From an uncultured virus (IMG/VR IMGVR_UViG_3300020147_000003) (Duplodnaviria > Heunggongvirae > Uroviricota > Caudoviricetes), in IMG/VR virus record IMGVR_UViG_3300020147_000003: 20,000 nucleotides of DNA; one strand, written 5' to 3'. The notes under the pieces were generated by a model, which searched no databases, was not told the DNA's origin, and was given only the letters and a program-made list of their open reading frames with translations. The translations under genes and the position numbers were made by a program. Position 1 is the first letter of the stretch. Every line of letters starts with the position of its first letter. This document shows positions 473 through 20,000 of this stretch, piece by piece.

Positions 473-852
473 TTTTTTTTTAAATCGGACACCTTAGAAG
501 AAAGGAAAGATAGGGGAGTTTGACTTGTGGCAAGCATAGCGGCAACTTGCTCCGCGCTGAGGTGAGAAACATCACGGCCGTCGATTGTCCGGACCGTAGC
601 TGCGTAGGCAACAGGAATAAGGCTTGCCCGGTTTTTTACAAGGGAAATGTTCTGGATAGAATTAATAAGGCAGGTTGCAGCCTTTTCAGGTTCCTTGGCT
701 TCGATATACTTGTAGGCGGTTATCAAAAGGCTTTCCAACCCGTCAATTCCCCCTCCAGCTCCGGCCTCAATCATTAAAGCAAGTTGAAAGTCATGGTATC
801 TGTGGGCTGGAATATCTTCAATGCCGGTAAAATGTTCAGTGTGTCTTTTCAT
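397..852 (-). CDS. N-terminal part of probable tail assembly chaperone (phage protein)
   Basis: 151 aa helical protein that overlaps the next ORF by 76 nt through a slippery run. The tail after KKK (WILRLKRSILSTPDHPPKPKQPSA) looks out-of-frame. Confidence 0.6.
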   Translation of the reverse strand: MKRHTEHFTGIEDIPAHRYHDFQLALMIEAGAGGGIDGLESLLITAYKYIEAKEPEKAATCLINSIQNISLVKNRASLIPVAYAATVRTIDGRDVSHLSAEQVAAMLATSQTPLSFLSSKVSDLKKKWILRLKRSILSTPDHPPKPKQPSA

Positions 853-859
853 CCCGTCT

Positions 860-2088: not shown

Positions 2089-2129
2089 GTGATTTGTGTT
2101 TAGCCGGGTGCCGAATAGTGTGTTATGGG

Positions 2130-2741
2130 TTATTGCTTTTTGATTAGCAAATACTTCGTTCCGTTCCTTGCAGATACCCACTTTCCAGACGGTCTTAACT
2201 TAAAAGTTAAGTTGAACGCAAAGAAGTTTCGCAATACAATCGCCCCGTTCGGTTTAGGCTGAATTGTACCCGTTTTCGGCGTCCCGATGGCGTCAAGTTG
2301 CGATACCACCCCATTTGCGAAAGTCACCACGTAGCTTTTTCTATCGCCAACTTCCGGGCTTTCGATAAGCTGATAGGTGCCATTGATTGCTTGTTGGATT
2401 TGCTGAACCAACACAGTGTCGAGCGGTTGCCCTGCGAGCTGTTGGTAAAGCGTGGCGTAGGAAGTACGCAGGGCTTTGGCGTTGTCCAATTGCTCCTGCG
2501 CTTTCTCAATATTGGCGTCGGTCTGCAAAGCCAGTTGAAGCAGGGTTTGCTTCATCCTTTCTTTGTTCACCCCATCATCAAGAACTAATTGGGTAGCAGT
2601 CAAAACTCCATCCGAAAAAGTCTTTTGCTCCAGGTTGTAAGAACTGTCGGCCGGGACCAGGACGAGGGTGACCGTGGTTGTTTGTTGTGCATTTGCAAAG
2701 GCCATGAAAAGGCCCAAAATCAGTGTCAGAAGGATTTTCAT
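2130..2741 (-). CDS. Exported hypothetical protein, possible fibre-associated chaperone
   Basis: MKILLTLILGLFMAFANA|Q signal peptide, central coiled coil, beta-rich ends; directly follows the large fibre gene. The function is inferred from position only. Confidence 0.8.
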   Translation of the reverse strand: MKILLTLILGLFMAFANAQQTTTVTLVLVPADSSYNLEQKTFSDGVLTATQLVLDDGVNKERMKQTLLQLALQTDANIEKAQEQLDNAKALRTSYATLYQQLAGQPLDTVLVQQIQQAINGTYQLIESPEVGDRKSYVVTFANGVVSQLDAIGTPKTGTIQPKPNGAIVLRNFFAFNLTFKLRPSGKWVSARNGTKYLLIKKQ

Positions 2742-2753
2742 AAGTATTTTAAA

Positions 2754-6752: not shown

Positions 6753-6757
6753 GGTTA

Positions 6758-7864
6758 TTATCGGTTAGTCCATTGGAATTTGTGCAGGTGCTTGTTTCCG
6801 GACGGCACGTTGGTCATCCGGACCTTTATCACCCCGGAACCGGAAGAGGAAAAGCCATATGGCTGCATTCCTGGGGTATTGTCGTGGTCGTATTGGCAGG
6901 AAGCCGAAGGGCTACCGGCTGAAACATTGGCATTGTAGATAAGTCGCTGGGCATGTGGGATGGCCTCGAAGTCGTTGGTTCCTGCTCCGTTCAAAATGAA
7001 GTCGATGGTGCAGGAAGCACCGTGAGAATTGTTATAGGTATCGATAACTTCCAAAAGCTGAATAACCCCGCCCGAAACGTTTACCGTGATTGTGGCTGTT
7101 CCGGTTCCCTCCCCCGCTCGAGCTACTGTGACTGTTGGGGTGCCGGATATGGTTTTGTAAATTACCCTGGTAACGTTGTTGGCGTCAGTCCCGGAAACAT
7201 CGTTCACCGCCGTAATGGTGGCGGTTGAAACAGTGGTGTTCGTTACCCCGGTAATTCGCCCGTCTTCGTCTACTGTAATAACAGGAATTTGGGTTGCGGA
7301 CCCATACGAGCCAGGGGAAACGGCAGTAGAGGCAAGTTCAGTTGCACCGACACTTCCGGAAGCAATTTGTAGGTTGGAAAATGTACCGGAAATATCGCCC
7401 CCGGCGCTGGTCGCTGAAGTTACTGGGGTAAAGGCCAGGTCAGCGGCGGCAATGGTCCCATCCAGAATTTTCCCTGTTGTAATCGCATTAGGGTCTATGG
7501 TCCAGGTGGCCCCGGTTCCTGAAACGGTGATGTCGCCTTTGTCCCCGTCAGTTACACCCCCGGCTGTTGCGTCAACGTAGGTTTTAATTGCTTTCTGGGA
7601 CACCAGCTTCCGGTCTGAAGGAGTAGCGAACGTGGCGTCTGTCGAAAAGGCGTCGATACCTATAAGCCGATCCACCGGGAGCGTATCTTCAGCCGGAAAA
7701 AAATGGGAGGCCATCCAGTCCCGGTAATCGGTTTGGGTAGGCTTATCGCCCGTTTCAAACCTTCCATGCAGGTAGGACCGAGTTCTGACAGTTTGAGATT
7801 GGAGAGAATAAAGGAAGGATAAAAGGAATACGCCCGAAAGTAGAGCAGGCAAAAACTTTTTCAT
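6758..7864 (-). CDS. Short tail-fibre-like protein with signal peptide, 368 aa (start revised to 7864)
   Basis: ATG at 7864 gives MKKFLPALLSGVFLLSFLYSLQS|Q and lies downstream of a promoter and leader motifs. It has an FETGDKPTQ N-terminal motif and shares the DGDKGDITV...DLAFTP...GGDxSGT module with the 1332-aa protein. Confidence 0.8.
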   Translation of the reverse strand: MKKFLPALLSGVFLLSFLYSLQSQTVRTRSYLHGRFETGDKPTQTDYRDWMASHFFPAEDTLPVDRLIGIDAFSTDATFATPSDRKLVSQKAIKTYVDATAGGVTDGDKGDITVSGTGATWTIDPNAITTGKILDGTIAAADLAFTPVTSATSAGGDISGTFSNLQIASGSVGATELASTAVSPGSYGSATQIPVITVDEDGRITGVTNTTVSTATITAVNDVSGTDANNVTRVIYKTISGTPTVTVARAGEGTGTATITVNVSGGVIQLLEVIDTYNNSHGASCTIDFILNGAGTNDFEAIPHAQRLIYNANVSAGSPSASCQYDHDNTPGMQPYGFSSSGSGVIKVRMTNVPSGNKHLHKFQWTNR

Positions 7865-7867
7865 TGT

Positions 7868-7881
7868 TGTACCGTGTTTTT
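7868..7881 (-). promoter_or_regulatory. Leader motif B (AAAAACACGGTACA), copy 1
   Basis: Exact core shared with copies at 9166-9182, 15135-15151 and 18126-18142; all lie within 5 nt of an ATG. Confidence 0.8.
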
Positions 7882-7890
7882 CCCCGCTTT

Positions 7891-7904
7891 GCCTGCTCCT
7901 AAGC
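7891..7904 (-). promoter_or_regulatory. Leader motif A (GCTTAGGAGCAGGC)
   Basis: Near-identical to 18156-18169 (-) and 18338-18349 (+); 26 nt before the ATG at 7864. Confidence 0.8.
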
Positions 7905-7922
7905 GTCTGCGGATTGATAGAA

Positions 7923-7930
7923 CAAATATA
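7923..7930 (-). promoter_or_regulatory. Bacteroidota sigmaA -7 element (TATATTTG)
   Basis: Matches TAnnTTTG; sits between a terminator and the leader of the exported-protein cluster. Confidence 0.7.
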
Positions 7931-7943
7931 AAGACATTCTATT

Positions 7944-7968
7944 AAAAAAGCGGGGTTTAATGCCCCGC
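7944..7968 (-). terminator. Intrinsic terminator after holin
   Basis: GCGGGG-CATTAAA-CCCCGC followed by TTTTTT on the minus strand. Confidence 0.8.
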
Positions 7969-8029
7969 CCGTTCCGCCCAGCAATGGCCGGCTCCACGCA
8001 GCCGGGGTCTAAGGGCGGAATGTTTCCTG

Positions 8030-8473
8030 TTATTTCTTCAGATTTAGAATACGCTCGAAAATGTGCTTAATGTCTTTCCAGATTGGGGTCCCCGTAACCT
8101 GCTCCACGTTTTCAATGTTGCTTTTAAATTCAGTCCTTGCAATTAGCAAGGTGACTAGGTAGGTGACGTAAGGGATGCCGAATACCTTTTCCATTCCCTC
8201 TGCTGCCAGAATAGCGATAAAATACAGGGTGATTTTTTCAACAGACCGGCGAAAACCCCTCGATGTTATGGTTTCACCGCGCTCTTTTGCGGCCATTACC
8301 CCGGTAATGAAATCGGCAACCACCAACGCCATTACCAGCCCCAGGAACGGAACCAACGGCGACAGCTTCGCTGCCAGCCAACTGGCCAGCACCAACAGCA
8401 GGCCCAGTATTTCCTCATGTGTAGAAAATTTGTTCATGGAGACGTTTTTAAGGTAATTCAAAGTTGTTTTCAT
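8030..8473 (-). CDS. Phage holin (Phage_holin_4_1-like)
   Basis: Several TM segments and the characteristic D-F-I-T-G...I-T-S-R-G-F-R-R...K...E-F-K-S-N-I-E-N pattern. Confidence 0.88.
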   Translation of the reverse strand: MKTTLNYLKNVSMNKFSTHEEILGLLLVLASWLAAKLSPLVPFLGLVMALVVADFITGVMAAKERGETITSRGFRRSVEKITLYFIAILAAEGMEKVFGIPYVTYLVTLLIARTEFKSNIENVEQVTGTPIWKDIKHIFERILNLKK

Positions 8474-8519
8474 TGTCCGATCTTTTTTCGCCTTTTTTCA
8501 TTGGGCCAAGGTGCTTGAT

Positions 8520-8552
8520 TGGCAGGGGCTACCTCTCAAGCAACCCCTGCCA
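8520..8552 (-). other. GC-rich intergenic hairpin upstream of holin
   Basis: TGGCAGGGG/CCCCTGCCA perfect 9-bp stem, extendable to about 15 bp with G-U pairs; no U tract. Confidence 0.7.
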
Positions 8553-8569
8553 GTGTCGAATTTTAGGTA

Positions 8570-9166
8570 TTAAACCTTTTTCGCTTCGAGGTTAATTCCA
8601 AACAACTTTAGGAAGGCCGTCAGGCCCATTCCGCTAACTACGACGCCGAACATTCCGGCTAGATAAAGGAGCGCCTCCATGACTGTCCAACTTCCTTCAC
8701 CTTTAAATAATACGATGCCTGTACCGGTGACCAAGAGGCTGGAAAACAACAAAAGGTACCGGGTGCGAATGGTATTAAAGGCATTTTGAATTTTGCCTAC
8801 TGTTCCGGGCGGCACGTTTTTAAATAAGGACAGTAGCCTGGTTAAAATCGCCACTATGGTACCTCCAGCGGTAAACAGGGCAGCGATTTTCGCTATCCAC
8901 CACTCAACTCCCTCTTTTGTGTTTGGTAACGGTGCCCCTCGGAATTGCGCCCCGAAATCCTGGCCCAGGGCTTTGCCGCGCAAGGCCAGCGCCTTTCCTT
9001 CTTCCCCGCAGGTGTTTACCCACCGGGTAACATCTTCCAGGTATGCGCCCAAAAGGCTGTCGTTTACGATAGCCGTGCCGCTGTGTTGAATGTTTTCCGG
9101 AACCTGGGCCACGGGGGAAAACTGAAGCGTGATCAGAAAAGTGAGAAGCAAAAAATACTTTTTCAT
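8570..9166 (-). CDS. Multi-pass membrane protein with signal peptide
   Basis: MKKYFLLLTFLITLQFSPVA|Q followed by about three hydrophobic helices; motif B abuts the ATG. Confidence 0.8.
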   Translation of the reverse strand: MKKYFLLLTFLITLQFSPVAQVPENIQHSGTAIVNDSLLGAYLEDVTRWVNTCGEEGKALALRGKALGQDFGAQFRGAPLPNTKEGVEWWIAKIAALFTAGGTIVAILTRLLSLFKNVPPGTVGKIQNAFNTIRTRYLLLFSSLLVTGTGIVLFKGEGSWTVMEALLYLAGMFGVVVSGMGLTAFLKLFGINLEAKKV

Positions 9167-9182
9167 GTACCGTGTTTTTTAG
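9166..9182 (-). promoter_or_regulatory. Leader motif B, copy 2 (CTAAAAAACACGGTAC-ATG)
   Basis: 17/17 identity with 15135-15151. Confidence 0.8.
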
Positions 9183-9232
9183 AAAGTGTATCGGCTTTTC
9201 AGAAGGCAAAGCCCACCGCCAAACCATTATTT

Positions 9233-9808
9233 TTATGGGCAATTGTCAGTAAAATGGACAGTGCCGTCAATGCGAAATCCACCATAGGGTTTCATAAGAA
9301 ATTGCCGGTCAATTTCCTTGTGCGAGTAACGGGGAAAAATCGTTTCTCCGGAGTAATGGAATTCAAGGTCCTCGCCGAAAGTTGCCATGCCACCCCCGGA
9401 TTTCAGTTCGTTTAGCACGTCCTGAATTACATTCCAAATTGTCCGGCCTTTCCAGTCTGCCGGGTACACCTTTCGGAAGTCGAACCAAACCACAAGGCCC
9501 GCTTTGAATTGAAGGCTGGCCAGATCGTTCCGCCAATTGGAAACAGTCACCGGTTCTTTGGTATCCCAGAAGGAATATCCACCCAGGGAAGCCAGGTGCC
9601 TATCTGGAAGCAGGCTCAGGTAATCGCCGCTACCTTGCCCGGCTGTGAACACTGCCGGGTAATTCAGTTGCCCCTCCCCTACAAGCCGTTGTGCCTGCCC
9701 ATAGGCTTTTGTCAGCCATGGCAAACCCGCCAAACGCTCATTCAGCGCGGCAATCGCCTTGTCGACCAAGGTCGCTTCAGCGAGGGGATATGGAACTGGG
9801 TTTGTCAA
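9233..9808 (-). CDS. Probable tail completion/terminator protein
   Basis: 191 aa, positioned after the neck genes; LPWL..AYG, VWFD and QFLM.PY.GFR motifs recalled from Bacteroides siphophage structural proteins. Confidence 0.6.
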   Translation of the reverse strand: MTNPVPYPLAEATLVDKAIAALNERLAGLPWLTKAYGQAQRLVGEGQLNYPAVFTAGQGSGDYLSLLPDRHLASLGGYSFWDTKEPVTVSNWRNDLASLQFKAGLVVWFDFRKVYPADWKGRTIWNVIQDVLNELKSGGGMATFGEDLEFHYSGETIFPRYSHKEIDRQFLMKPYGGFRIDGTVHFTDNCP

Positions 9809-10179
9809 TTCTGCAATTCGTTTAAAATTGTTTCAAAAACATATTGCTGAAATCGGCACATTAACTCGTTACAGGGTTCAGCGCCAACATATTCAGCGGA
9901 TTGCTGAACAACGTGAAGGCTTTCGTGGGCAATTACGGCCAATTCGTGAGCGGTCATTTTTTTCTTTGGGGCAAAACCCAAGTAAACCGCTATTCGGTTT
10001 CTGCCGAAGTGGGCAACCAACCCATTGCAAGGCTTTTCGAAAAGACCGTCAAATTCTTTTTGGTACTCTGGCTCTAACCGGGACTGAACTTCTCTTTTGA
10101 AGGTTTCAGGCAAACCGAAGTGAACAAGTACATCAGCGCTGAGTATAGGCAGGGTGAAAATCAGGGTTTTTGTTTTCAC
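9805..10179 (-). CDS. Small putative zincin metallopeptidase-like protein
   Basis: VIAHESLHVV (HExxH) with a downstream Glu (CNEL); overlapping start/stop with both neighbours. Confidence 0.6.
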   Translation of the reverse strand: MKTKTLIFTLPILSADVLVHFGLPETFKREVQSRLEPEYQKEFDGLFEKPCNGLVAHFGRNRIAVYLGFAPKKKMTAHELAVIAHESLHVVQQSAEYVGAEPCNELMCRFQQYVFETILNELQN

Positions 10180-10433
10180 TATTCTCCCAGACTTTTCAAC
10201 TCAATCATTGCGCCCTCCAGTTCTTTTTGAAGCTGGTCTACCCTTCGATTCCTTGCCTCGCTAATGGTTTGTGCAACGATTTTAAGGACCTCGTTTTGTT
10301 GCTTGTAATTATAGTTAATCAAAAGGTGTTCGGCAAAACTTACCGCATCTTTACAATGTGGTTGAAGTACCGGGTCCGGTTTTTCTTCTCTAATGGATGG
10401 TTCATAATTGAAATTTCCGTTAAACTCACTCAT
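10179..10433 (-). CDS. Hypothetical protein, 84 aa, C-terminal coiled coil
   Basis: AT-rich leader, ATG start, stop overlapping the next start by 1 nt. Confidence 0.7.
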   Translation of the reverse strand: MSEFNGNFNYEPSIREEKPDPVLQPHCKDAVSFAEHLLINYNYKQQNEVLKIVAQTISEARNRRVDQLQKELEGAMIELKSLGE

Positions 10434-10468
10434 TTTCGGTTAATTTTTAAGTGTGAAAAATGTGTCCT

Positions 10469-10515
10469 AAAAAACCACCGAAGCCGTGTGAAATTCACTG
10501 AACGGCCCCGGTAGC
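10469..10515 (-). terminator. Intrinsic terminator after neck gene
   Basis: Minus strand GCTACCGGGGCCGT...ACGGCTTCGGTGGT (14-bp stem with G-U pairs) followed by a T run. Confidence 0.78.
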
Positions 10516-10522
10516 ATCGGTT

Positions 10523-10966
10523 TTAATTCAATAGTTTGTGTCGAACCCTTTCAGGTAGTTCAGCCCGTAACAGACCGTCAATTAGTTCTTGCTTCGAGCC
10601 ATCCGTTAAGCCGAATATTTCGGGCCCGTATTTATCTTCCAGCTTTGCGGCCTTTGGGTCGCTGTTTCCCACGGAGAATTGACCAGCTTGGCCGCCGCTT
10701 AGGAACATGGCCCGGTGAAAAGCGCCGGTGTCCTTCAGCGTTACCCGGTCGTGTGGTTGGCCCTTGGCCTTTTTTATTGCAACCGTATTTACGGAATATG
10801 CCGGAGTTATTTTTTCTCCTTCGCTGTCAATGCCGGCTTCCAATTGCGCTGTCTGAAGGTCTTCCACCATGGCAGCGTTTTCTTCAATCAGCTCGCCCAC
10901 CATTTCAGGCAAATCTTGCTTCAGGCTTTCCAGCCTTTTAATGATATGGTCAATTCCCTCTATCAT
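10523..10966 (-). CDS. Neck/virion morphogenesis protein (HK97 gp10-like)
   Basis: 147 aa with QL..G.D..G..I.P.YS..T..IKK.KGQP.DRVTLKDTG.F motif; positioned after the connector gene. Confidence 0.75.
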   Translation of the reverse strand: MIEGIDHIIKRLESLKQDLPEMVGELIEENAAMVEDLQTAQLEAGIDSEGEKITPAYSVNTVAIKKAKGQPHDRVTLKDTGAFHRAMFLSGGQAGQFSVGNSDPKAAKLEDKYGPEIFGLTDGSKQELIDGLLRAELPERVRHKLLN

Positions 10967-12264
10967 CCCGTTGCACCGTATTCAACCCCCCTTGCTTCAG
11001 CACAGGGAAGGCAGAGTTCATCAATGCCGGTTGTATCGAACTTTACCGCCGCTATCGCTTTTTCGTATGCTGCTGCCAGGCCTGTTTTATACGACCCGGA
11101 AATACCATGGGGATTGCCGTCGATCTCGTACAGGATTTCTTCTCTTTTCAGGTTATTCTTGTTCCTGTTTACCCTCGCATTGGGGTTATAGGCCATCTCC
11201 CGGAGCAGGGATTTTGCCAGGAAAAGACTAAAGGCCAGGGCGAATTTCTTCTTCTGTTCCACCACGAATTCGGTATAGTCGCAACTAACTTCGATGGCCA
11301 CATTTAGGCCGTTCGTTTTTGCGATGTACCCGATTTGGGAAGTCAGGAAAACATCACTTCCGCCAACAATAAGCGTATTTTCGATTTCATCAGCTCCTAC
11401 TCCATCGGCTTCCATCACCGGGGCGGTAAACGGATGGGCGCGGAAGTATTTGCCCCCCGGAAGTTGCCAACCAGAGCTCCATGCGGTGCGCTCGTTGGCG
11501 TCGTTATAGGCATGGCCAGCAAGTTCGTTTTGGGAGTAACAGAGGTAGTAAGCGCCCTTGCCCTCCAATTCCCACTCCACATCGAACCACTGCACGTCGC
11601 CGCCTTGGGTATAATTCAGATTTTCAGTTTTTATAGGGTTTTTGTTTCCGCTTTTATACAGGTAAAGGGTAAGGGATTGGGACTCGCTAAGGTGAAGCGA
11701 AATCTTCCGGATGGTAGCCAGAGCGCCACGGCTTCTTATTATCCGAAGCTCAATGCCCGACATATGGTCACCCGGCTTTTCGACCGTATCGCTGTTCGAC
11801 CCCGTAGATGTGTATAGCTCCTCCCTTTCTACGAGCGAGCGGATGGAACCGGCCTCGAATTTCCTTCCGGACCAATCATTAAATAATTGAGCAATTGCCC
11901 CTTTTGTCTTATTCGTCAGCCAATCGGTGAACGCCTCATTCGAATTCCATTCTTTCCAGTACTCCGAATTTGGTGGGGATTGCCCCGTGTGTGCTTTGAC
12001 GCAGTAATAGTTTTTACTGTCCTTCAATACAATGTTCCCTATGACATAGGCTTTCGCATTATCCCAGGCAGGGTAAACGAAAAGGGAAAAATCCGGGGCT
12101 ATGCTTTCCAGGTTGCTGAAAGTTAGAAGCGGGTGAACGTCGTTCATGAAAATCCCGCTGTCGGAGGTCGTCAGGCCCGTGATTTGCACCCCAGCTGGAT
12201 CTGGGTTCTGTCTCCACCCTACTAGCGGAAGGAAAGCAGTTTCGACTGTTGCAATTTTAAACAC
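10963..12264 (-). CDS. Probable head-tail connector/adaptor with CBM5/12-like insert
   Basis: GTG start, 433 aa, downstream of the capsid gene; VGW.Q, HPLLT, NPNARVNRN and terminal CLPC motifs recalled from Bacteroides phage homologues. Confidence 0.62.
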   Translation of the reverse strand: MFKIATVETAFLPLVGWRQNPDPAGVQITGLTTSDSGIFMNDVHPLLTFSNLESIAPDFSLFVYPAWDNAKAYVIGNIVLKDSKNYYCVKAHTGQSPPNSEYWKEWNSNEAFTDWLTNKTKGAIAQLFNDWSGRKFEAGSIRSLVEREELYTSTGSNSDTVEKPGDHMSGIELRIIRSRGALATIRKISLHLSESQSLTLYLYKSGNKNPIKTENLNYTQGGDVQWFDVEWELEGKGAYYLCYSQNELAGHAYNDANERTAWSSGWQLPGGKYFRAHPFTAPVMEADGVGADEIENTLIVGGSDVFLTSQIGYIAKTNGLNVAIEVSCDYTEFVVEQKKKFALAFSLFLAKSLLREMAYNPNARVNRNKNNLKREEILYEIDGNPHGISGSYKTGLAAAYEKAIAAVKFDTTGIDELCLPCAEARGVEYGATG

Positions 12265-12280
12265 GGAGGAAATTATTAAC

Positions 12281-12324
12281 AGTGAAAGAAGCGGACAAGG
12301 AGAAATTCCAAATTGTCCGCTTCT
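12281..12324 (-). terminator. Probable terminator/stabilising hairpin after capsid + lipoprotein genes
   Basis: Perfect 12-bp stem AGAAGCGGACAA/TTGTCCGCTTCT (12287-12298 / 12313-12324) ending in TTCTTTC. Confidence 0.68.
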
Positions 12325-12362
12325 CCGAAATTATTGACACACTTTTTTCTGACCGAAATTCC

Positions 12363-12884
12363 TTACGGATTATCCTCGGTAAGGAATGCGACCGTACGTA
12401 AAGCTGTGCTTTGCGTGGACGTTGGAGTAATAGTTCGCAATCGAAGTCGACCTCGTAGGATCGTACCGGAAAGCCGGGCTTTGGTAGACACCCCGTCAAT
12501 CGCGCCGGTGGTAACGTTGTACCAGTCGTTCCCCGAAAATTCCAGGCTGTTCTGAAGGAAATAAGTCGCCCCGGTCGAACCTGAAAGGCTGTCGGCGAAA
12601 AGGTCAACATGGTAGTTCATCGGCCCGAAAAAGGTTCCTATGTCATAATCGGAGGTGTCCTTGCTGGAACTGGCAGACAACGTATCGGTTTGCTTTTCAA
12701 CAAACTGGCGTACTACGTTAAGGGCATATTCAGAAGGCACTCCTTCCGTGGGAACATCGGCGGGAACTTCGACCTGGGCGGGGGCACCTGCAGCAGATCC
12801 GGTTTTTTCAGCCCCATTGAAGCAAGCCAAAAAACAAGAGGCTGCAATAAGCCCAAAAATGATAAGGAAAAGATATTTTTTCAT
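12363..12884 (-). CDS. Putative lipoprotein
   Basis: MKKYLFLIIFGLIAASC lipobox-like signal (alternative site FLAC), A/P-rich linker, beta-rich C-terminal domain. Confidence 0.72.
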   Translation of the reverse strand: MKKYLFLIIFGLIAASCFLACFNGAEKTGSAAGAPAQVEVPADVPTEGVPSEYALNVVRQFVEKQTDTLSASSSKDTSDYDIGTFFGPMNYHVDLFADSLSGSTGATYFLQNSLEFSGNDWYNVTTGAIDGVSTKARLSGTILRGRLRLRTITPTSTQSTALRTVAFLTEDNP

Positions 12885-12909
12885 CGCTAGATAATTGTGG
12901 TTAAGATTG

Positions 12910-12941
12910 AAGCACAGCTAAATTTTACTTCAGCTGTGCTT
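12910..12941 (-). other. Hairpin directly after major capsid stop
   Basis: AAGCACAGCT/AGCTGTGCTT perfect 10-bp stem with no strong U tract; likely stabilises the mRNA 3' end. Confidence 0.7.
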
Positions 12942-12949
12942 ACCAATCA

Positions 12950-14026
12950 TTAGGCTTTGGAAATATCGAACTTGATAATCGGCGTCGGAATAGTAGCAGG
13001 ATTGCTATTGTAGGTCGTGATAAAGCACACGTCGAAAGCGAAGTCGTAGACCTGGACGACGTCCCTGGTCATGTCGGCAGCATCGGCACCGCCGATATCC
13101 GTTGCGGCGTTCACCGCGCCTTCGTAGTAGTACGTACCAACTTCGATGTCCAGAAGCGGCAGGCGGACCGTACCCCATTGGTGGCCATCGGCGGTTTTGC
13201 TTCCGTACAGCGCCGGGCGCTCTACCCTGGTCATCATGCCAAGGCAGCCATCTGCGATGGCGAACCCGGTAGCGTCCTTACCCACGGCGTTGTTAATGCC
13301 GCTGGTGAAGTGGAAGAATTTACCGGCAAAAGGCAGGGTTTTGTCCTCCTGATTGAACTGGCCGAAACCTTCCATCCGGCGCATGATGCCGTCATAGTAG
13401 TTGTTTGCTACGATGTCCAGTGTGTTGATGGGCGAACCAACCTGGTTACCGTACATCCGCATCGAACGGAGCATTCCGGGAAGGTCGTGCAAAATGTAGC
13501 TGTCCTTCAGGTTTCCAATGCCGGTTTCGGACACCACGTTGCTCGCAAAGGTGTGGCCACCGGGTATTTGCGGGATAACCTGCGTTTTCGATGCATCCAT
13601 TTTGGCAATGGCCAAAGTTTCAAGGCTGTCGGAAAATCCTTCCAGCATGGAAAGGAACTTCCGCTCGAAATCCCGGAGCAACCCGATATAGTTGTTGTGA
13701 TACAGGTTCGGGTAGATGTGGAAACCGTAGGCCAGGGTGGTGAACGTGTAGGTAGCGAAGGTCGAAGTATTCTCGTCGATCGGAATCGTCAGCGGCCGGG
13801 TAGAACGGATGGTTACCCCCTTGCGGTTAATAACCGGCGTTTTCACCGTTTTGCCCATCGAGGCAAAAATTGTGTTTTTCAAATCGTCGGTGACGATGCT
13901 GCCGGGCGCCATGGTTTGGCGCTTAAAGGCATCGTAAGCTCCGAGATTGTTAATCCGGTTCTCGAACTTGTCGAGGTTCGGGTTCATGTCGATTACGTCC
14001 TGAACCCGGGACAGTATTAAAGACAT
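12950..14026 (-). CDS. Major capsid protein
   Basis: 358 aa, follows the scaffold, biased codon usage; LDKFE, TPVI, ENTS, DGH.WG...LPLL...VGTY, ADMTR and YNS.P motifs match Bacteroides siphophage capsids as I recall them. Confidence 0.88.
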   Translation of the reverse strand: MSLILSRVQDVIDMNPNLDKFENRINNLGAYDAFKRQTMAPGSIVTDDLKNTIFASMGKTVKTPVINRKGVTIRSTRPLTIPIDENTSTFATYTFTTLAYGFHIYPNLYHNNYIGLLRDFERKFLSMLEGFSDSLETLAIAKMDASKTQVIPQIPGGHTFASNVVSETGIGNLKDSYILHDLPGMLRSMRMYGNQVGSPINTLDIVANNYYDGIMRRMEGFGQFNQEDKTLPFAGKFFHFTSGINNAVGKDATGFAIADGCLGMMTRVERPALYGSKTADGHQWGTVRLPLLDIEVGTYYYEGAVNAATDIGGADAADMTRDVVQVYDFAFDVCFITTYNSNPATIPTPIIKFDISKA

Positions 14027-14104
14027 AGCAGAGAAATTTTTGAGTTAAAAAATCTTGTTGCTGAATTGCTCCGAGAATTTTCTGCTCCTCAAAAATTCTC
14101 ACTC
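14027..14104 (-). promoter_or_regulatory. Structured capsid leader containing motif A core (AGGAGCAG)
   Basis: GAGAATTTT-TGAGGAGCAG-AAAATTCTC hairpin (14073-14100) with alternative pairing to 14027-14044 next to the ATG. Confidence 0.72.
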
Positions 14105-14137
14105 GTAGTTTGGTTTGGCTTTTTCGGGGTTGTTCTT

Positions 14138-15130
14138 TTACTGTGGTGGAAGCTCGGAAACCTTATGTTCCTTCCGTAGCTCTTGAAACTTGTTATTAAA
14201 CTCCGGATGGCTGGTTGAAATCTGCTGACTCTTCAGATAGTCAAGAATCGCTTCGTCTGCTTGCACCCTAGTTTTTGCTGCCCTTACTCCGTCCAGACTG
14301 ACGCCCGTTCCGCCTCCCCCTCCGGCGCTTCCGCCATTGGTTCCGGCCCCGCCTTGCTTCCTTCCTTCGTCAATCAGGTCAACTTTTTTCAACCTGGTCA
14401 ACAAAAGTTCGGCGGGAGAGTATGGGTTTTGGAAGTTGGCAGGGTTTAATGCAATTTCGCCTGTCTCCTTGTGGCGGAATTGAATGGTTTCCTTACCATC
14501 GCTACCCTTAACCAATTCCGGAACGTATTCCTGCAGGATGGCGGCTTTCGAAGAGTTCACCAGTTCTGTAGCTGCGGCTTCAGGATAAACGGAGCGGAAT
14601 TTTACCCCCTGAAGGGCCTGGGCAAAAGCAAAGTCAGTTTTCATTTTCACGAATTCCTGGTCTTTTGCTTTCAAGGCGTCCTCTTGCGCCTTGGATAATT
14701 CCCCGACCTTTCCCTGGAGTTTCTTGTTCTGGGCTTCCATGTCCCTAACCAACTGCTCGGTGGTTTCCAACTTCTTTTTTAATACCGCGTCTGCGGTACC
14801 TTCGGCAATCTGCTTTTTCAGGTTTTCGACTTCCTCTTTTGCTCTTTTGAGGTCATCGCTATTGCCAGCTTTTTCAGCAGTGGTTTTGTACTCTTCGAGG
14901 ACCGACTTCATAAATTCATAAGTCTTTACCTTTTCCGGTCTCTCCTTGCCGGTAATGGATTTTATGTCCTCGTCGAAGCGACGGTAGATTTCACCCGTTT
15001 GGGTATCAATCTCCTTTTTGACGTCCACTTTTAACTGGTTATTACCCAGTTCGATGACAGCGTTCACCACTTCATCGGTGAGAGAGGCCAACACAGGATT
15101 GGCCTTGATAATTTCGGCTGTGAAAGGCAT
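14138..15130 (-). CDS. Capsid scaffolding protein
   Basis: K/E-rich coiled coil, Gly-rich linker and short C-terminal helical domain; immediately upstream of the capsid gene. Confidence 0.8.
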   Translation of the reverse strand: MPFTAEIIKANPVLASLTDEVVNAVIELGNNQLKVDVKKEIDTQTGEIYRRFDEDIKSITGKERPEKVKTYEFMKSVLEEYKTTAEKAGNSDDLKRAKEEVENLKKQIAEGTADAVLKKKLETTEQLVRDMEAQNKKLQGKVGELSKAQEDALKAKDQEFVKMKTDFAFAQALQGVKFRSVYPEAAATELVNSSKAAILQEYVPELVKGSDGKETIQFRHKETGEIALNPANFQNPYSPAELLLTRLKKVDLIDEGRKQGGAGTNGGSAGGGGGTGVSLDGVRAAKTRVQADEAILDYLKSQQISTSHPEFNNKFQELRKEHKVSELPPQ

Positions 15131-15134
15131 GTTG

Positions 15135-15151
15135 TGTACCGTGTTTTTTAG
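15135..15151 (-). promoter_or_regulatory. Leader motif B, copy 3
   Basis: CTAAAAAACACGGTACA, ending 4 nt before the scaffold ATG. Confidence 0.8.
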
Positions 15152-15178
15152 TGAAAAAAGTGTTTCTGTTTTTTCCCG

Positions 15179-15619
15179 TTAAATCAGTTTCCGGTCTTTC
15201 AGAATGGAAAGGTATTGCTGGTTAATCTTAGGCTCCGTACACCCATTCGGAAGGTGCAACACCTTCACAACGTAGAGGCCCAGATGCTCCAGTACCGTTT
15301 TTTCATCCTCCGGATCCAAGCGGCGCGCTTGGCCTTCCCAGTCAACCCGGTTGGTGACGTGCTTCCGGGGTTTGTGAATTACTTCCCCCGTATCGGCATG
15401 GAACCCAGGTTCCCAGACGATGACAGCAACCGTATCCTTGCCGTATTCCTCGCCGGCAGCCGCCGGCGTAACTTCATCCGTAACAGGCGGAATTGCATCG
15501 GCTGTGTCAGTACCGATACCATTATCCGGCGCTTGCTGGTCAATTAACCCCAACCCCGGCGCTTGCTGGTTCTCCCCTTCGTTCAGGGGGTTCTGCTCGT
15601 TGGATTTTTTCTTCGACAT
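15179..15619 (-). CDS. Conserved phage head-region hypothetical protein
   Basis: Acidic disordered N-terminus plus compact C-terminal domain; between portal and scaffold; overlaps the portal end by 80 nt. Confidence 0.75.
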   Translation of the reverse strand: MSKKKSNEQNPLNEGENQQAPGLGLIDQQAPDNGIGTDTADAIPPVTDEVTPAAAGEEYGKDTVAVIVWEPGFHADTGEVIHKPRKHVTNRVDWEGQARRLDPEDEKTVLEHLGLYVVKVLHLPNGCTEPKINQQYLSILKDRKLI

Positions 15620-17336
15620 ATTGAATTAAAATTTCGGTGACTATTTCTATCCGCTTATTGAAGTCAAGGGCTTGCGAGGCAAATGTGGTTAAGTCGCCGT
15701 GTTCACGCTCGAACCTTGCAATAAGTGTAGAGAAATTGAATTTCAAATAAATCAGCTCCGGAGGCGCTGTTCCGAGGTTCTTTACCTCGTCGGCTGTCTT
15801 GTGCCGGAAGGGGTCTAGGTGTAAAAGGATTTTTTCACGCTGCTGCATTATAGGGTCGAACCTGTAACGTGCTGCCAAATAATCCTCCCAAAGCCTGTCC
15901 AAGACCGAGGCGTTGGCCCCCGCCTTCCTTCTATCCTCGTACTGTGTCAAAAGGTCGTCGGCGCGGAGGATATGAAATTCTGTTCCCAGGTTTATCGTCG
16001 CACCCATGAACACCCGTTGGCCGTACCTTAATCTTGCCATTGTTTCTTCCGTCCACTTCTGGAGGGATTCAAAATTTGGCTTTAAATTGATAAGGGCTTG
16101 GGTTTTGGCATCTACTATTGCCCCTACCTGTTTTTCGTTCACCGCTTGGTCGTTCACCGCCTCATTTTCAGCGCCGGTCACATCGATGAATATGGCTTTC
16201 CTAAGCCTGTCCACCTCCTGGGAATTGTATTCCAGGCTGACATTTTCAGCCGGAACCACCCCTACCGGATCGCCAAGGTCCTTTTCATCCTGTTTGGGCA
16301 TTGGTTTTCCGACAAAACTTCCCGCTCCGAGTAGCTTAGATTTCGAGCATACCGGACACCGGTGCAATGCCCCGGTTCTCCCATCGACCTGGTACTGCCC
16401 ACTTCCATCCCGGAGAAATCCGACATGGCATTGTAAGTAAATGCCCCTGTCCCGGTCCTCCTGAACGAACGTACATTTAGGCGCATAGCCCCAGTAGATT
16501 GGATATTGCGCCGTCAGCTCGTTCACCCGTTTAGAAATCAGGTAAGCTAAAAGCCAGTCTAATTCCCCGAGGTGTTTGCTCAACGGGCTTTCCTTTAAAT
16601 CAGTCGTGGCGTTGCTGACCGGGTCCGTCCACATCCAGCGGACAGGCGTATACCCAAGGTCGTGAGGGATTTCGGTTTCTACGCCCACTATTTCGGTGCT
16701 TCCTTTTCCCTTCAGTTTGAAAATCCTGTAATGGGTTTGGTCGAACCAAGCCATACGGTCCTCCCCAAGGGGGAATGCAATCCATCGGAAGGCCTCACCA
16801 TCCCATTCGTAGTCGTGAACGGCTTCGATATTGAGAAGGTAAGGGTATGGCTCTGGAAGGTCGCCTTCTTGCTCCTGGGGCAAATCAACCACGACAAGGG
16901 AATTCACCCTGCCCTCTACCAACGTGTCAAAGACCTTTCGGCGAAAGAAACCGGGTAGCTTTTTCATCTCCCGGTAAACTTGCCAATCTTGCGCCGCTTC
17001 CGGCGCATTGAAATCGTACTGCTGCACGGGATTTCGGCCGTCAAAAACCTTCTCCAGAGCAGCGAAAATCTTTTCCGTAAAAGCTACCGTTGGAAGCGGA
17101 AAACGAAAAAGGACACAGAACAGGTTAAATTTTTCGGGCTTGCTTAAAACCCCTTCCCACCAGTTCAGGAATTCCGTTACCGCAACCCCAGCCGCTAGAG
17201 CATCGCCTTGTGCAAGATTTAGGGTACCGTGCAGGCGAAGCCGCGCCTCATGCCTTGCCGCCCTTGCGAGCCGGTCCCGATTTTTCTTGCTCTTCAGCAG
17301 TTCCCTGATTTCCAGGGTTGTCAGCGGTTGCGGCAT
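15540..17336 (-). CDS. Portal protein
   Basis: 598 aa upstream of scaffold and capsid; FRFPLPT, VFDGRNP, HDLGYTP, YPIY and AVNEKQV motifs recalled from Bacteroidota phage portals; Cys-rich insert. Confidence 0.85.
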   Translation of the reverse strand: MPQPLTTLEIRELLKSKKNRDRLARAARHEARLRLHGTLNLAQGDALAAGVAVTEFLNWWEGVLSKPEKFNLFCVLFRFPLPTVAFTEKIFAALEKVFDGRNPVQQYDFNAPEAAQDWQVYREMKKLPGFFRRKVFDTLVEGRVNSLVVVDLPQEQEGDLPEPYPYLLNIEAVHDYEWDGEAFRWIAFPLGEDRMAWFDQTHYRIFKLKGKGSTEIVGVETEIPHDLGYTPVRWMWTDPVSNATTDLKESPLSKHLGELDWLLAYLISKRVNELTAQYPIYWGYAPKCTFVQEDRDRGIYLQCHVGFLRDGSGQYQVDGRTGALHRCPVCSKSKLLGAGSFVGKPMPKQDEKDLGDPVGVVPAENVSLEYNSQEVDRLRKAIFIDVTGAENEAVNDQAVNEKQVGAIVDAKTQALINLKPNFESLQKWTEETMARLRYGQRVFMGATINLGTEFHILRADDLLTQYEDRRKAGANASVLDRLWEDYLAARYRFDPIMQQREKILLHLDPFRHKTADEVKNLGTAPPELIYLKFNFSTLIARFEREHGDLTTFASQALDFNKRIEIVTEILIQYVEEKIQRAEPPERRGEPASAGVGVN

Positions 17337-17478
17337 TTTCTGTGGTTTTCTGTTCGTCCTCCGCCAACCGCCAGCCGTTTTCGTGCTTATTCGTCGGATG
17401 GTTTAAAATCGCCTTGGCGTGTTCCTCATCCACCCAAATCGGGTCGTTGGTCGGACAAACGAGTTTTACTTTTTTCAT
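17248..17478 (-). CDS. Small phage protein (76 aa)
   Basis: Fills the gap between tail tube and portal; HA..IL...GW.L motif; its disordered tail overlaps the portal start by 89 nt. Confidence 0.7.
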   Translation of the reverse strand: MKKVKLVCPTNDPIWVDEEHAKAILNHPTNKHENGWRLAEDEQKTTENAATADNPGNQGTAEEQEKSGPARKGGKA

Positions 17479-17489
17479 GTCAAAGGCTA

Positions 17490-18125
17490 TTAATTAGCCA
17501 AGCCGGTTAAGGCATTAAAGTCCGAGGGTGTTACCTCGTACAATACATTGTCCCAACCGTCTGGCAAGTAGAATTCAAGGGTGTTGAAGCCACGGGTATT
17601 TATGGCATCACCTTGGCGACCGCTTACCTTCAGCTCTTTGATATCGATTCCCCTTGCCTTCGTGGGAGAGGAATTGGCATCGGCTGACATAATAATCCGC
17701 CCGAACCCGTTGATAAGGTGAACTGTCAAATCCTCACCGTAGAGCTTACGGAGTTCCTCGATTGTTTTCGAAACCCGTGCGGTTACCTTACAGGTAAACT
17801 TGCCGGGACCGAAACCAACGAATTTGGGAATACCCCCAGCGGTTTCACCGGGTCCGCCTTCTTCGTAGACTTGCCCCGGTTCGAAAACCGGGTTGTCAAT
17901 TTCGAAGGGCGTAACAATTGCTTTCGTGCCGTTGACGGCAGTAAGCAAGGGAGTCCAACTAGCGATAAGATTTGGATTTGCTGAAGCGATGGTCAACTCG
18001 TTTAGAGTTGTGCCGGAGGAGTATTTGCGCTGGAAGATTAACTTCCGAACCTCACCGATCTGTAAACAGCCGTTGGAAATGGCGGTAAGAGAGGCAGCTG
18101 ACGACCCGCAGAAATTTGTGAGCAT
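17490..18125 (-). CDS. Major tail (tube) protein
   Basis: 211 aa, beta-rich; G.V.K..FQR, SW..LL.A..GTK..V.P, T.GGI and DFNALT motifs recalled from Bacteroides siphophage tail tube proteins. Confidence 0.72.
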   Translation of the reverse strand: MLTNFCGSSAASLTAISNGCLQIGEVRKLIFQRKYSSGTTLNELTIASANPNLIASWTPLLTAVNGTKAIVTPFEIDNPVFEPGQVYEEGGPGETAGGIPKFVGFGPGKFTCKVTARVSKTIEELRKLYGEDLTVHLINGFGRIIMSADANSSPTKARGIDIKELKVSGRQGDAINTRGFNTLEFYLPDGWDNVLYEVTPSDFNALTGLAN

Positions 18126-18142
18126 TGTACCGTGCTTTTTAG
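18126..18142 (-). promoter_or_regulatory. Leader motif B, copy 4 (CTAAAAAGCACGGTACA-ATG)
   Basis: One mismatch to copies 2 and 3; abuts the ATG. Confidence 0.8.
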
Positions 18143-18155
18143 TATTCTAGCCTCG

Positions 18156-18169
18156 GCCTGCTCTTAAGC
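18156..18169 (-). promoter_or_regulatory. Leader motif A (GCTTAAGAGCAGGC)
   Basis: 13/14 identity with 7891-7904; 30 nt before the ATG. Confidence 0.8.
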
Positions 18170-18201
18170 ACTTGGCTTTTAATTCAAAAAGAGAAGCAGT
18201 G

Positions 18202-18234
18202 CAAATGTATTGTATTTTGTATTTAAAAAACAAA
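18202..18234 (-). promoter_or_regulatory. Bacteroidota sigmaA promoter, leftward
   Basis: TTTG (18234-18231), N21, TACATTTG (18209-18202); matches the -33/-7 consensus. Confidence 0.8.
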
Positions 18235-18307
18235 TTTTAATATCAAAAATTTTTGACCCAAGGAGAGTTCCCGGTTACGCCGGGAAGCATTTTATTACTA
18301 AAACCTA

Positions 18308-18315
18308 TATTTTTG
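18308..18315 (+). promoter_or_regulatory. Bacteroidota sigmaA -7 element, rightward (TATTTTTG)
   Basis: TAnnTTTG ending 65 nt before the tape measure ATG; no clear -33 element. Confidence 0.65.
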
Positions 18316-18337
18316 CCACATTATTCCCCGCCTTACA

Positions 18338-18349
18338 CTTAGGAGCAGG
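18338..18349 (+). promoter_or_regulatory. Leader motif A (CTTAGGAGCAGG)
   Basis: 12/12 identity to the copy at 7892-7903 on the opposite strand; about 30 nt before the ATG. Confidence 0.8.
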
Positions 18350-18380
18350 TGAACGGCGCTCAACCATTCAACCACCTGCC

Positions 18381-20000
18381 ATGGCAAATACGCTGAAGAC
18401 TTCCGAGCTTTTTACCGACGACATTATCGACAAGCTCATCGCCAAATTTCATGAACTAGGAAACGAGATTGAAAAGGACTTGGGGAAAATAAAAACCGAG
18501 GCCGCTGGGATGAAGAAATCAATTGAAGGGGTGAACACCACTACCGCAGCCGGCAGGGAAGAGGTGAATAGATACTCGCAAGTTGTTGCACAGCTTAACC
18601 AGGCGCAAAGCCGGTATCTGGAAGTTCAAAGCCAACAGAAACAAAAAATCGAGGAATTGAAGGTCGCTACTAGGACCTTGAACGAGTTGAAGAAAAATGA
18701 GGCAAGGTTTACCCTTTCAGCCGAAGGTTCCTATAACCGCCTATCGGCACAGTACAACATTATCAAACTTTCCCTGAACGCTATGTCCAAAGAGCAAAGG
18801 GAAAACACGAAAGAGGGCCGGGAGTTGGTAAAAACTGCAAAGCAAATCTTTGAAGAAATGAAGCGTTTGCAGGCTGAGACGGGGAAAACGGCTTTGAATG
18901 TAGGCAATTACAGCGATGCTATCGATAAAGCGGTAATGAACCTGGGAGAAATGAAGCAAGAGCTTTTGGCGCTTCGAAACATCTCCTTCGAGGGAAAAAC
19001 CCAGCAGGAAATCGACCAAATAAACCGCAGGATCGGGGAATTGACAGACAGCATGGCCGATTTACGGGCGGAACAAACAGCTTATGGGACCGAAACCGGG
19101 GCGCTCGTTGCCGGTTCGTTCAAGTTTTTTGCCGCTGGCATTGAAGGTATTGTGGCCAGTACCAAGCTGCTTGGAATTCAAAGCCCGGTATTGGATAAAT
19201 TGCAGAATAGCGTAGTCGAACTGATTGCCGTGTCGCAGGCGCTTGGCGCAATAGAGGACGTGTTGCAGAAAAAGACCTTGCAGGCTACTGCTGCCAGAAT
19301 AAAATCCATAGCGATTAATGCAAAGGACACCGTTTCGAAGTGGGCAAACGGCGTTGCCACTACCGCCGCCGCCCGAGCCGAAGATGCAAGGACCGTTGCC
19401 CTAGCCAGGGGAAGTGTAGTCACCCGTGGCGCTGCCGCGGTGCAATGGCTTTGGAATGCTGCCTTGGCTGCAAATCCCATCGGGCTGGTTATCACCGGTG
19501 TTGCCGCTTTGGTTGCTGGAATTGTATTGCTTACAAGGGTGATGCGTGACAATACTGACGAAATCGAAAGGCAATCCCAGGCTTACGGCAAACTGGTAGA
19601 AGCAAGGAAATTGGATGAGGCCCTTACCAAACAAAAAATTGCGCTTGCAAGGGAACAGGGCCAGGCGGATACTGAAATAACCCGGCTGGAGCTGGAAGCG
19701 GCAAGGAAACGCAGGGAGGCATTATTCAGGGAGCATCAGGATTTTTTGAAAATCCTTTATTCAAAGAAAAAAGCCTCCGACGACGAAAAGCAACGAAATG
19801 AGGATTACTTCAGAGAAAGAAAGGAAGTAGCCGCAGAAATCCAAATCCTCGAAACTAGGCTTACCAGACAGGAAAAAGAAGCGGCAGAGGAACGAGCTAA
19901 AACAGCGGAGCAGGAGGCGGAACGGGCTAGAGCCGAACGTGAAAGGCTTCAAAAGCAAAAGGAAGCACAGATAAAAGAAATCCAGGATGCCCAACTGAAG
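18381..20000 (+). CDS. Tail tape measure protein (partial, runs off window; not in ORF track)
   Basis: 540 codons from ATG (MANTLKTSELF...) in one frame; GSYNRLSAQY...LQAETGKTALNVGNY and QWLWNAALAANPIGLVI motifs; coiled-coil, Ala-rich. Confidence 0.9.
   Translation, partial: MANTLKTSELFTDDIIDKLIAKFHELGNEIEKDLGKIKTEAAGMKKSIEGVNTTTAAGREEVNRYSQVVAQLNQAQSRYLEVQSQQKQKIEELKVATRTLNELKKNEARFTLSAEGSYNRLSAQYNIIKLSLNAMSKEQRENTKEGRELVKTAKQIFEEMKRLQAETGKTALNVGNYSDAIDKAVMNLGEMKQELLALRNISFEGKTQQEIDQINRRIGELTDSMADLRAEQTAYGTETGALVAGSFKFFAAGIEGIVASTKLLGIQSPVLDKLQNSVVELIAVSQALGAIEDVLQKKTLQATAARIKSIAINAKDTVSKWANGVATTAAARAEDARTVALARGSVVTRGAAAVQWLWNAALAANPIGLVITGVAALVAGIVLLTRVMRDNTDEIERQSQAYGKLVEARKLDEALTKQKIALAREQGQADTEITRLELEAARKRREALFREHQDFLKILYSKKKASDDEKQRNEDYFRERKEVAAEIQILETRLTRQEKEAAEERAKTAEQEAERARAERERLQKQKEAQIKEIQDAQLK

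Follow-up and report, generated by a model that had tools for sequence, protein, structure and literature searches.

Recurrent motif A stem-loops in the operon leaders of an uncultured soil phage: a candidate RNA operator

The window analysed here is a stretch of 20,000 nucleotides (nt) from the uncultured virus record IMGVR_UViG_3300020147_000003 (Caudoviricetes), whose parent contig measures 65,754 bp and whose DNA is present in three soil-metagenome runs. Judging by profile matches to PHROG, the window covers structural and lysis genes of a tailed phage. A minus-strand gene block running from 18125 to 137 encodes the portal, virion and head proteins, tail proteins, a holin and a fibre-like protein, and the tape-measure gene starts at 18381 on the plus strand, divergent from the minus-strand structural genes. 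The operons that begin at 7864 (fibre, minus), 18125 (head/tail, minus) and 18381 (tape measure, plus) have one 12-nt sequence in common, CTTARGAGCAGG, which we call motif A, and which forms the top of a stem-loop in each leader.

The original prediction had described motif A as a recurrent leader element located downstream of TAnnTTTG boxes and a short distance before a start codon, and both the copies and their arrangement were confirmed. Exact matches are found at 7892-7903 (minus), 18157-18168 (minus) and 18338-18349 (plus), where 200 shuffles gave a mean of 0.00; the extra matches obtained by allowing up to two mismatches are at chance level (5 versus 2.29 expected). The TAnnTTTG box occurs three times on the two strands of the window, which makes it depleted (8.8 +/- 3.2 expected), and every one of these boxes precedes a copy of motif A. 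They are TATATTTG at 7923-7930 (minus, fibre operon), TACATTTG at 18202-18209 (minus, head/tail operon) and TATTTTTG at 18308-18315 (plus, tape-measure operon), and they end 19, 33 and 22 nt upstream of the motif, respectively. All three have the refined form TAHHTTTG that is characteristic of Bacteroidota sigma-A promoters, and the box at 18209 in addition has, 21 nt upstream, a TTTG of the kind optionally found near -33, so the host-type promoters proposed earlier are in place, with predicted start sites and with motif A in the sense orientation to the downstream genes in all three cases. In Flavobacterium johnsoniae transcription starts 4-5 nt past the -7 box, as described by Baez 2019 (PMC6847099), and application of this rule predicts starts near 7918, 18197 and 18320. 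Motif A would then begin at about +16, +30 and +19 of leaders with a predicted length of 54, 72 and 61 nt. The distance from the end of the motif to the first ATG is 27, 31 and 31 nt, and the spacing between box and motif (19-33 nt) thus varies more than that between motif and ATG.

An alignment of the three copies shows that motif A is the top of a two-tier stem-loop of around 30 nt, composed of an outer 4-bp stem, an internal loop of 4 x 3-4 nt, an inner stem (G/A)CUU/AGG(C/U) and a hexaloop A(G/A)GAGC. Copy 1 spans 7884-7912 on the minus strand (outer stem 7912-7909/7887-7884, CCGC/GCGG; inner stem 7904-7901/7894-7891; loop AGGAGC at 7900-7895), copy 2 spans 18149-18177 on the minus strand (outer stem AGCC/GGCU, inner stem GCUU/AGGC, loop AAGAGC) and copy 3 spans 18329-18358 on the plus strand (outer stem CGCC/GGCG, inner stem ACUU/AGGU, loop AGGAGC). 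They score 47, 44.1 and 40 bits, respectively, with covariance model R1, which matches nothing else in the window. From the base of the hairpin to the respective ATG there are 19, 23 and 22 nt. The sequences flanking the invariant core vary, yet all three copies share the pairing register, and the closing pair of the inner stem is G-C, G-C and A-U in copies 1, 2 and 3. In the alignment all 24 pair cells are paired and four of the eight pairs have changed on both sides, whereas controls slid by 1-3 columns were 23-50% paired and had 0-1 two-sided changes. RNAfold recovered the two-tier hairpin independently in copies 1 and 2 when given only the 5' untranslated region. A closing helix of this kind is found at 10% of random window positions, and the flank-shuffle probabilities are 0.12, 0.05 and 0.035 per copy. 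Since the inner stem contains a U-G pair in every copy, the fold is strand-specific. The core is 100% and 92% identical among the copies, and copies 1 and 2 share only a 12-14-nt core with the long repeat described below; this conservation of the core amid diverged flanks argues for selection on the core. An Rfam search of the whole window on both strands, one of the follow-ups suggested with the original prediction, gave no match at E up to 1.

Additional copies were recovered from outside the window, by placing the assembly unitigs of the three soil-metagenome DNA runs on it (k=31 graph). Copy 3 is located within a repeat, from 18322 to ~18360, of which the phage genome has around three copies: the depth of a 34-nt unitig (18327-18360) is 55 versus 18.5 for the phage, which indicates about three identical copies of this 34-nt unit. 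A 27.4-kb unitig on the minus strand, which extends past position 1 of the window, carries a 22-nt copy (18336-18357) at ~0.77 kb beyond the left end of the window. At its distal end the unitig has a 35-nt copy (18322-18356), and the orientation of both copies is that of the minus-strand genes. At loose ends of the graph two further leaders diverge after 18357 or 18360; their ATGs, assumed by analogy, are found 31 and 29 nt past the motif and are preceded at 1 or 3 nt by CCTGC, the retention of which near the ATG is suggestive and may reflect simple common descent. On a third loose end the upstream DNA differs and brings its own TACTTTTG box, which lies 4 nt ahead of position 18322. The identity among the copies of the long repeat begins at 18322, which is about +2/+3 of the predicted transcript, and leaves out the promoter. 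Considering that identity starts at the predicted 5' end of the transcript, the conserved unit would be the transcribed leader, and this is the strongest argument we have. In all, the genome probably contains at least six copies of motif A, at least three of them outside the window. The three DNA runs showed no sequence variants from which natural covariation might be read, and none of the listed runs that contain this stretch is recorded as RNA.

The known relatives of the phage are distant. A megablast search of the window against phage records gave no match, and a tblastn search with the 211-amino-acid (aa) protein encoded by the first gene of the head/tail operon gave 66 records, all below 60% identity and the best at 39%. 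The closest deposited phages have Croceibacter, Flavobacterium, Bacteroides and Parabacteroides as hosts, all of them Bacteroidota (at most 39% identity in the 211-aa protein), and the host of the present phage is probably a member of the Bacteroidota as well. Within IMG/VR, searches with the 211-aa protein and with the portal found no relatives, and an alignment search with the portal found 115 at up to 42% identity, 80 of which were kept for motif scans. JGI metagenome contigs provided eight loci (at most 41% identity), GTDB genomes contained no relatives, and portal homologues at 65, 57 and 55% identity are known as proteins. Neither TTARGAGCAGG nor CACGGTACA was found in any of the 80 IMG/VR relatives. 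A scan of IMG/VR for motif A in combination with a second repeat, motif B (see below), had no matches; the combination of motif A and the -7 box had 98 single matches, which were treated as chance because the fetched loci held no second motif A. Covariance model R1 found nothing significant in the loci of 88 relatives (1.46 Mb). Its best match, in L069, is inside an open reading frame (ORF) of 991 aa and was discarded, and so was an apparent leader motif in L012, which lies within ORFs. A k-mer search for analogous leader repeats in the relatives was too noisy in these AT-rich genomes. As far as sequences of such distant relatives go, the absence of the motif would not refute its conservation.

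A different form of leader reuse was observed in six Bacteroides-phage-like loci with 38-40% GC (L040, L045, L048, L057, L060 and L066), in which a whole promoter-plus-leader cassette of ~95 nt is reused at two to three genes. This cassette consists of an upstream region, TATATTTG, an A-rich leader and the ATG (for example at 3449, 16829 and 17435 in L048). Its leaders are unstructured, and the promoter is conserved too. In the open-access papers searched we found no leader element like motif A described in Bacteroidota phages. Phage-specific elements in leaders or at start sites are in themselves familiar (nut, Com targets, SAS), but motif A fits none of these by sequence.

The original prediction further held that each motif copy has a complement near its own start codon, by which the transcripts would be translationally locked until a factor binds. 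The complementary stretches that had been listed are all present in the sequence. To weigh them, the duplex energy of the motif plus flanks with a target running from 8 nt past the motif to +60 of the ORF was compared with 1000 dinucleotide shuffles of the target. In the fibre leader the complement stands out: the anti-motif at 7843-7853 (minus), in codons 4-7 of the 368-aa gene, is a perfect 11-nt complement to 7888-7898 and forms an inverted repeat around the AUG, and the duplex of -22.9 kcal/mol (versus -11.8 +/- 2.2) was equalled in none of the 1000 shuffles. The motif can form a helix of 11-13 bp with codons 4-8 here, and the leader can adopt either the hairpin, at -8.9 kcal/mol, or a long-range fold, at about -20 to -24 kcal/mol, each of which precludes the other. 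The other two leaders behave differently. In the tape-measure leader CACCTGC at 18373-18379 (plus), the complement of GCAGGTG at 18345-18351, ends 1 nt before the ATG, and the duplex (-14.1 versus -11.6 kcal/mol) was matched by 115 of the 1000 shuffles. The anti-motif proposed for copy 2 (18086-18095, minus), inside the 211-aa gene, takes part in the minimum-energy fold, yet its duplex (-14.1 versus -14.3 kcal/mol) was matched by 507. A fourth pairing had been proposed for the capsid leader. The partial core AGGAGCAG is indeed found there, at 14082-14089 (minus), in the loop of a long imperfect hairpin (14027-14110, minus), which stops 4 nt short of the ATG at 14026; the proposed pairing is replaced in the minimum-energy fold by a long imperfect helix of GAGAAUUUUUGAG with CUCAAAAAUUUCUC. 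This leader has no canonical -7 box and no match to covariance model R1.

The lock itself was modelled for each leader from the predicted start to +45, with -18 to +12 taken as the start region. By default the start region has an unpaired probability of 0.76 (fibre), 0.67 (211-aa gene) and 0.55 (tape measure) and is thus already open in the models. Considering also that two of the three pairings are at chance, a general lock by motif and anti-motif is not supported.

Motif B, AAAAARCACGGTACA, is a second recurrent sequence, which adjoins four minus-strand ATGs (7864, 9166, 15130 and 18125) at a spacing of -1 to 4 nt. At 7868-7881 (as AAAAACACGGTACA) it lies 3 nt before the ATG of 7864 and at 18126-18140 it abuts that of 18125, in both cases with motif A upstream. 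At 9166-9180 it overlaps the ATG of a 198-aa gene, and at 15135-15149 it precedes by 4 nt the ATG (15130) of a 330-aa virion protein; these two sites, half of the four, have no motif A upstream. The form CACGGTACAA has six matches at up to one mismatch versus 0.96 expected, a number reached in none of 200 shuffles, and four of the six abut an ATG, all four in the sense orientation; the 14-mer has three matches versus 0.00 expected. At least one more copy is present elsewhere in the phage, given a unitig that matches 7860-7881 and then diverges. The window contains no antisense copy that would be complementary to motif B. Like good Bacteroidota start sites, motif B is A-rich at -11 to -15, but its CACGGTAC core is not accounted for by this A-richness. 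A pairing of motif B with helix 45 of 16S rRNA is a speculative possibility. The idea that motifs A and B together constitute a bipartite promoter for an alternative sigma factor was discarded, as the two leaders in which both occur differ by 7 nt in the distance from A to B. Among the loci retrieved by the pattern scan, a single one, L119 (5012 and 5741, minus), combined a motif A match with the core of motif B; the two are 729 nt apart, and the combination may be chance.

By position, motif B resembles the SAS of the Cluster K mycobacteriophages, also a phage-lineage-specific, asymmetric motif (~13 nt) that occurs in one orientation a few nt from start codons. Around half of the genes with SAS carry a second element upstream (ESAS), comparable to the two motif B sites, out of four, that have motif A ahead of them. 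Nevertheless, the SAS sequence (GGGATAGGAGCCC) contains a Shine-Dalgarno core, which motif B lacks; SAS is found at non-structural genes, motif B at structural genes; and the arms of ESAS are without support for RNA pairing, whereas the flanks of motif A pair. Motif B is therefore an analogue of SAS, not a member. The function of SAS and ESAS is given as unverified, as of 2025, in PMC3203893 and PMC12699233.

Taken together, the motif A hairpin is a lineage-specific transcribed leader element, which is most likely the operator for a trans-acting factor. Our tentative first choice is that it serves as an RNA operator in post-transcriptional control. The stem-loop would be present in the 5' leader of each operon that starts from a sigma-A TAnnTTTG promoter, with its base 19-23 nt before the AUG, approximately at the 5' edge of the region that the ribosome must occupy. 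A trans-acting factor, probably a phage-encoded RNA-binding protein, would read the invariant loop and inner stem. It would thereby determine how the first cistron is translated or what becomes of its mRNA and, via coupling or polarity, the output of the whole operon. In the fibre leader, binding of the factor could choose between the hairpin and the pairing with codons 4-8. We infer in this scheme the transcription starts, the action as RNA, the trans-acting factor and the effect on translation. A link to translation is suggested by the motif-to-AUG distance, which is tighter than that between motif and promoter, by the ability of the fibre motif to pair with codons 4-8, and by the position of the hairpin base where the zone from -20 to +20 begins on its 5' side. 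It is this zone, in an unstructured state, and not a Shine-Dalgarno sequence on which Bacteroidota initiation depends according to PMC6847099. Compared with antitermination or a DNA operator, we give a slight preference to translational control.

Several observations weigh against an RNA operator, or limit what can be built on it. The structure was picked after inspection of only three independent sequences, a shuffle control matched the observed pairing values in 10 of 500 runs, and the whole-leader folding energies are ordinary (z -1.9 to +0.8). No orthologous leaders were found for a covariation test, the closest loci obtained being at most 42% identical in the portal. Two of the three anti-motifs are at chance level, and enforcing the hairpin or blocking the motif changed the unpaired probability of the start region to 0.67 and 0.58 (fibre), 0.50 and 0.62 (211-aa gene) and 0.68 and 0.66 (tape measure), without a consistent lock or release. 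The window, 20 kb of the 65,754 bp, encodes structural and lysis proteins only, and the trans-acting factor is postulated. In addition, operons of 10 kb would be governed only weakly if nothing but their first cistron were controlled. Finally, coding sequence is enriched in the core 8-mer GGAGCAGG (5 versus 0.81 expected; 3 of 2000 codon-order shuffles as high), which a pure leader-RNA model leaves unexplained.

The in-gene copies of GGAGCAGG are found at 2779-2786, 6981-6988 and 8098-8105 (minus) and at 11202-11209 and 19907-19914 (plus), four of the five in sense orientation; in the window as a whole the 8-mer occurs seven times versus 0.55 expected. None of the copies within ORFs has a leader-like hairpin fold, and they might represent dispersed DNA sites, a signal similar to Chi or an effect of composition.

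In the Mu Com/mom system, the analogy offered with the original prediction, a protein-binding leader hairpin is found beside an alternative start-region structure, and the two exclusive folds of the fibre leader resemble the Com target in this respect. However, occlusion of the start codon was not reproduced in our models, only one of the three leaders has a significant helix, and motif A would serve several operons where Com serves a single gene. Sequestration by default of the Com/mom type was not seen in the models: the start region is 0.55-0.76 unpaired and shows no consistent gain when the hairpin is enforced. The finding rests on one uncultured soil phage with three independent copies. 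Considering that the timing and tuning of phage late genes in Bacteroidota is almost unstudied, a repeated leader hairpin on host promoters would nonetheless offer a handle for a regulator search and for telling translational control from antitermination, and could become a portable expression part for Bacteroidota.

Antitermination of the nut/put type is rather unlikely. The hairpin, as RNA or as non-template DNA, would load a NusG/N/Q-type factor of the phage or the host, with which RNA polymerase would read through terminators inside the long late operons. The nut sites of lambda (boxB, bound by N) and the put sites of HK022 are promoter-proximal leader hairpins with a sequence-specific loop, which act in cis at the heads of long operons, and motif A likewise provides each operon with a leader hairpin with a conserved loop, although this is a likeness only. 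The hairpin heads each promoter-proximal leader, and the 10-kb minus-strand operon from 18125 to 8030 would offer obstacles to be read through: a terminator at ~10440-10490 (minus; U6 after a hairpin of -28 kcal/mol, z -4.1) and, between genes, strong hairpins at 12885-12949 (z -6.4) and at 8474-8569 (z -3.9), with no TAnnTTTG box downstream of them before 7930. Partial read-through after capsid and tail genes, however, is a common way to set protein ratios and would explain the internal terminator equally well. The same operon is ended, just upstream of the fibre promoter, by an intrinsic terminator at 7948-7970 (minus; GC-rich hairpin and T6); that this is followed by a new promoter at 7930, separating two minus-strand operons, and by a new copy of the motif suggests that terminators are obeyed. 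Antitermination moreover needs neither the near-constant distance of 27-31 nt to the ATG nor the pairing with fibre codons 4-8. The hexaloop on its two-tier stem differs in sequence from lambda nut, no boxA-like partner was identified, an N-like gene is not visible in the window, and the host is from the Bacteroidota. An ops-like loading site, which had been offered as an alternative, was not supported: the E. coli consensus, GGCGGTAGnnTG, has no sense-strand match at up to two mismatches in the three leaders, and Rfam provided none either. One antisense match with two mismatches occurs at 18365-18376 in the tape-measure leader; an exact sense match at 1988-1999 (minus), in a 255-aa ORF, is probably chance.

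We consider it just as unlikely that the motif is a DNA operator. In this reading a phage repressor or activator would recognise the 12-bp site, at +16 to +30, in double-stranded DNA, with the effect of a roadblock. The model for this is provided by the stoperators of Cluster A mycobacteriophages, asymmetric 13-bp sites that are oriented with transcription, dispersed through structural operons and bound by the repressor as DNA. Motif A is an asymmetric 12-mer just past every promoter and oriented with transcription, and the over-representation of GGAGCAGG throughout the window, including genes, is the pattern of dispersed DNA sites. The authors of the Cluster K study, which also mentions the stoperators, judged the inverted repeats of ESAS to be DNA sites (PMC3203893). 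In contrast to what is expected for stoperators, the flanks of motif A co-vary such that pairing is kept, the U-G pair makes the fold strand-specific and the identity of the repeat starts at the predicted 5' end of the transcript and not at the promoter, all of which favours RNA. The distance to the ATG is also more constant than that to the promoter, and the 34 bp that separate the motif from its 11-bp inverted partner in the fibre gene do not suit a protein that binds DNA as a dimer.

A passive leader module is doubtful and ranks below these two. It would act without a trans factor, by insulating or stabilising the 5' end of the mRNA or marking an open landing zone, and would have spread as a copied cassette. 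The stretch between hairpin and AUG is A/C-rich and predicted to be open, and the reuse of whole promoter-plus-leader cassettes at several genes of the distant relatives (L040 and others) provides a precedent. A passive module, however, needs no invariant 12-nt loop and inner stem amid divergence. Classical protection of the 5' end, as known from E. coli, requires a hairpin close to that end, and by this rule the motif A hairpin, which starts 7-21 nt from the predicted 5' end, is too far away. The cassettes of the relatives, moreover, are unstructured and include the promoter. The same holds for the intergenic repeats of halovirus HF2, which carry promoters (PMC8707807): both are promoter-plus-leader units, whereas among the motif A copies the promoters differ and the leader hairpin alone is conserved.

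We attach little credence to a reading in which the AGGAGC loop, which resembles a Shine-Dalgarno sequence and is displayed where the ribosome landing zone begins on its 5' side, is a phage-specific tag for ribosome recruitment. Bacteroidota ribosomes normally hide their anti-Shine-Dalgarno sequence, and the tag would come into play after bS21-dependent unmasking of this sequence or through an adaptor protein. If true, the structural operons would share a private translation channel, with motif B as the second part of the code. Least probable of all is that the 34-39-nt leader repeats are sites of recombination or inversion, or neutral remnants of recent duplications, and the 12-mer has no regulatory role: three identical copies of at least 34 nt, some of them inverted relative to each other, do break the k=31 assembly graph, and the tape-measure gene is oddly divergent from the other structural genes, but copies 1 and 2 share just the 12-14-nt core with the long repeat, their diverged flanks point to selection on that core, every copy keeps the order of promoter, motif and ATG, and the sole joint reported at these unitigs (7881 to 9166) falls on motif B copies and none on the motif A repeats.

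Among the remaining features of the window, the portal gene (15540-17336, minus) was identified by PHROG at E 8e-142, the holin of the minus-strand block by both PHROG and Pfam, and a tail-fibre-like protein of 1332 aa in the same block by PHROG. The 211-aa gene (17490-18125, minus) had been labelled a tail tube gene. It matches PHROG 8193, which is annotated as major head protein, and in deposited phage records its homologues are variously labelled as tail, head or structural protein. The ORFs at 137-472 and 397-852 (minus) overlap and match positions 9-136 and 139-246, respectively, of the phrog_8914 profile; they may represent a frameshifted or split virion-protein gene. Of the intergenic hairpins on the minus strand, 12885-12949 follows the capsid gene, 10434-10522 follows a tail gene and 8474-8569 precedes the holin gene. 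Together with the hairpin at 14027-14110 they are likely attenuators, or processing or stability elements, that set protein ratios. For a module of the siphovirus type, it is unusual that the tape-measure gene (18381-20000) diverges from the genes at 137-18125. The two divergent promoters have a perfect palindrome between them, TTCCCGG-N5-CCGGGAA (18268-18286). Its centre precedes the predicted start of the tape-measure operon by ~43 bp, and it may be the site for a dimeric DNA regulator.

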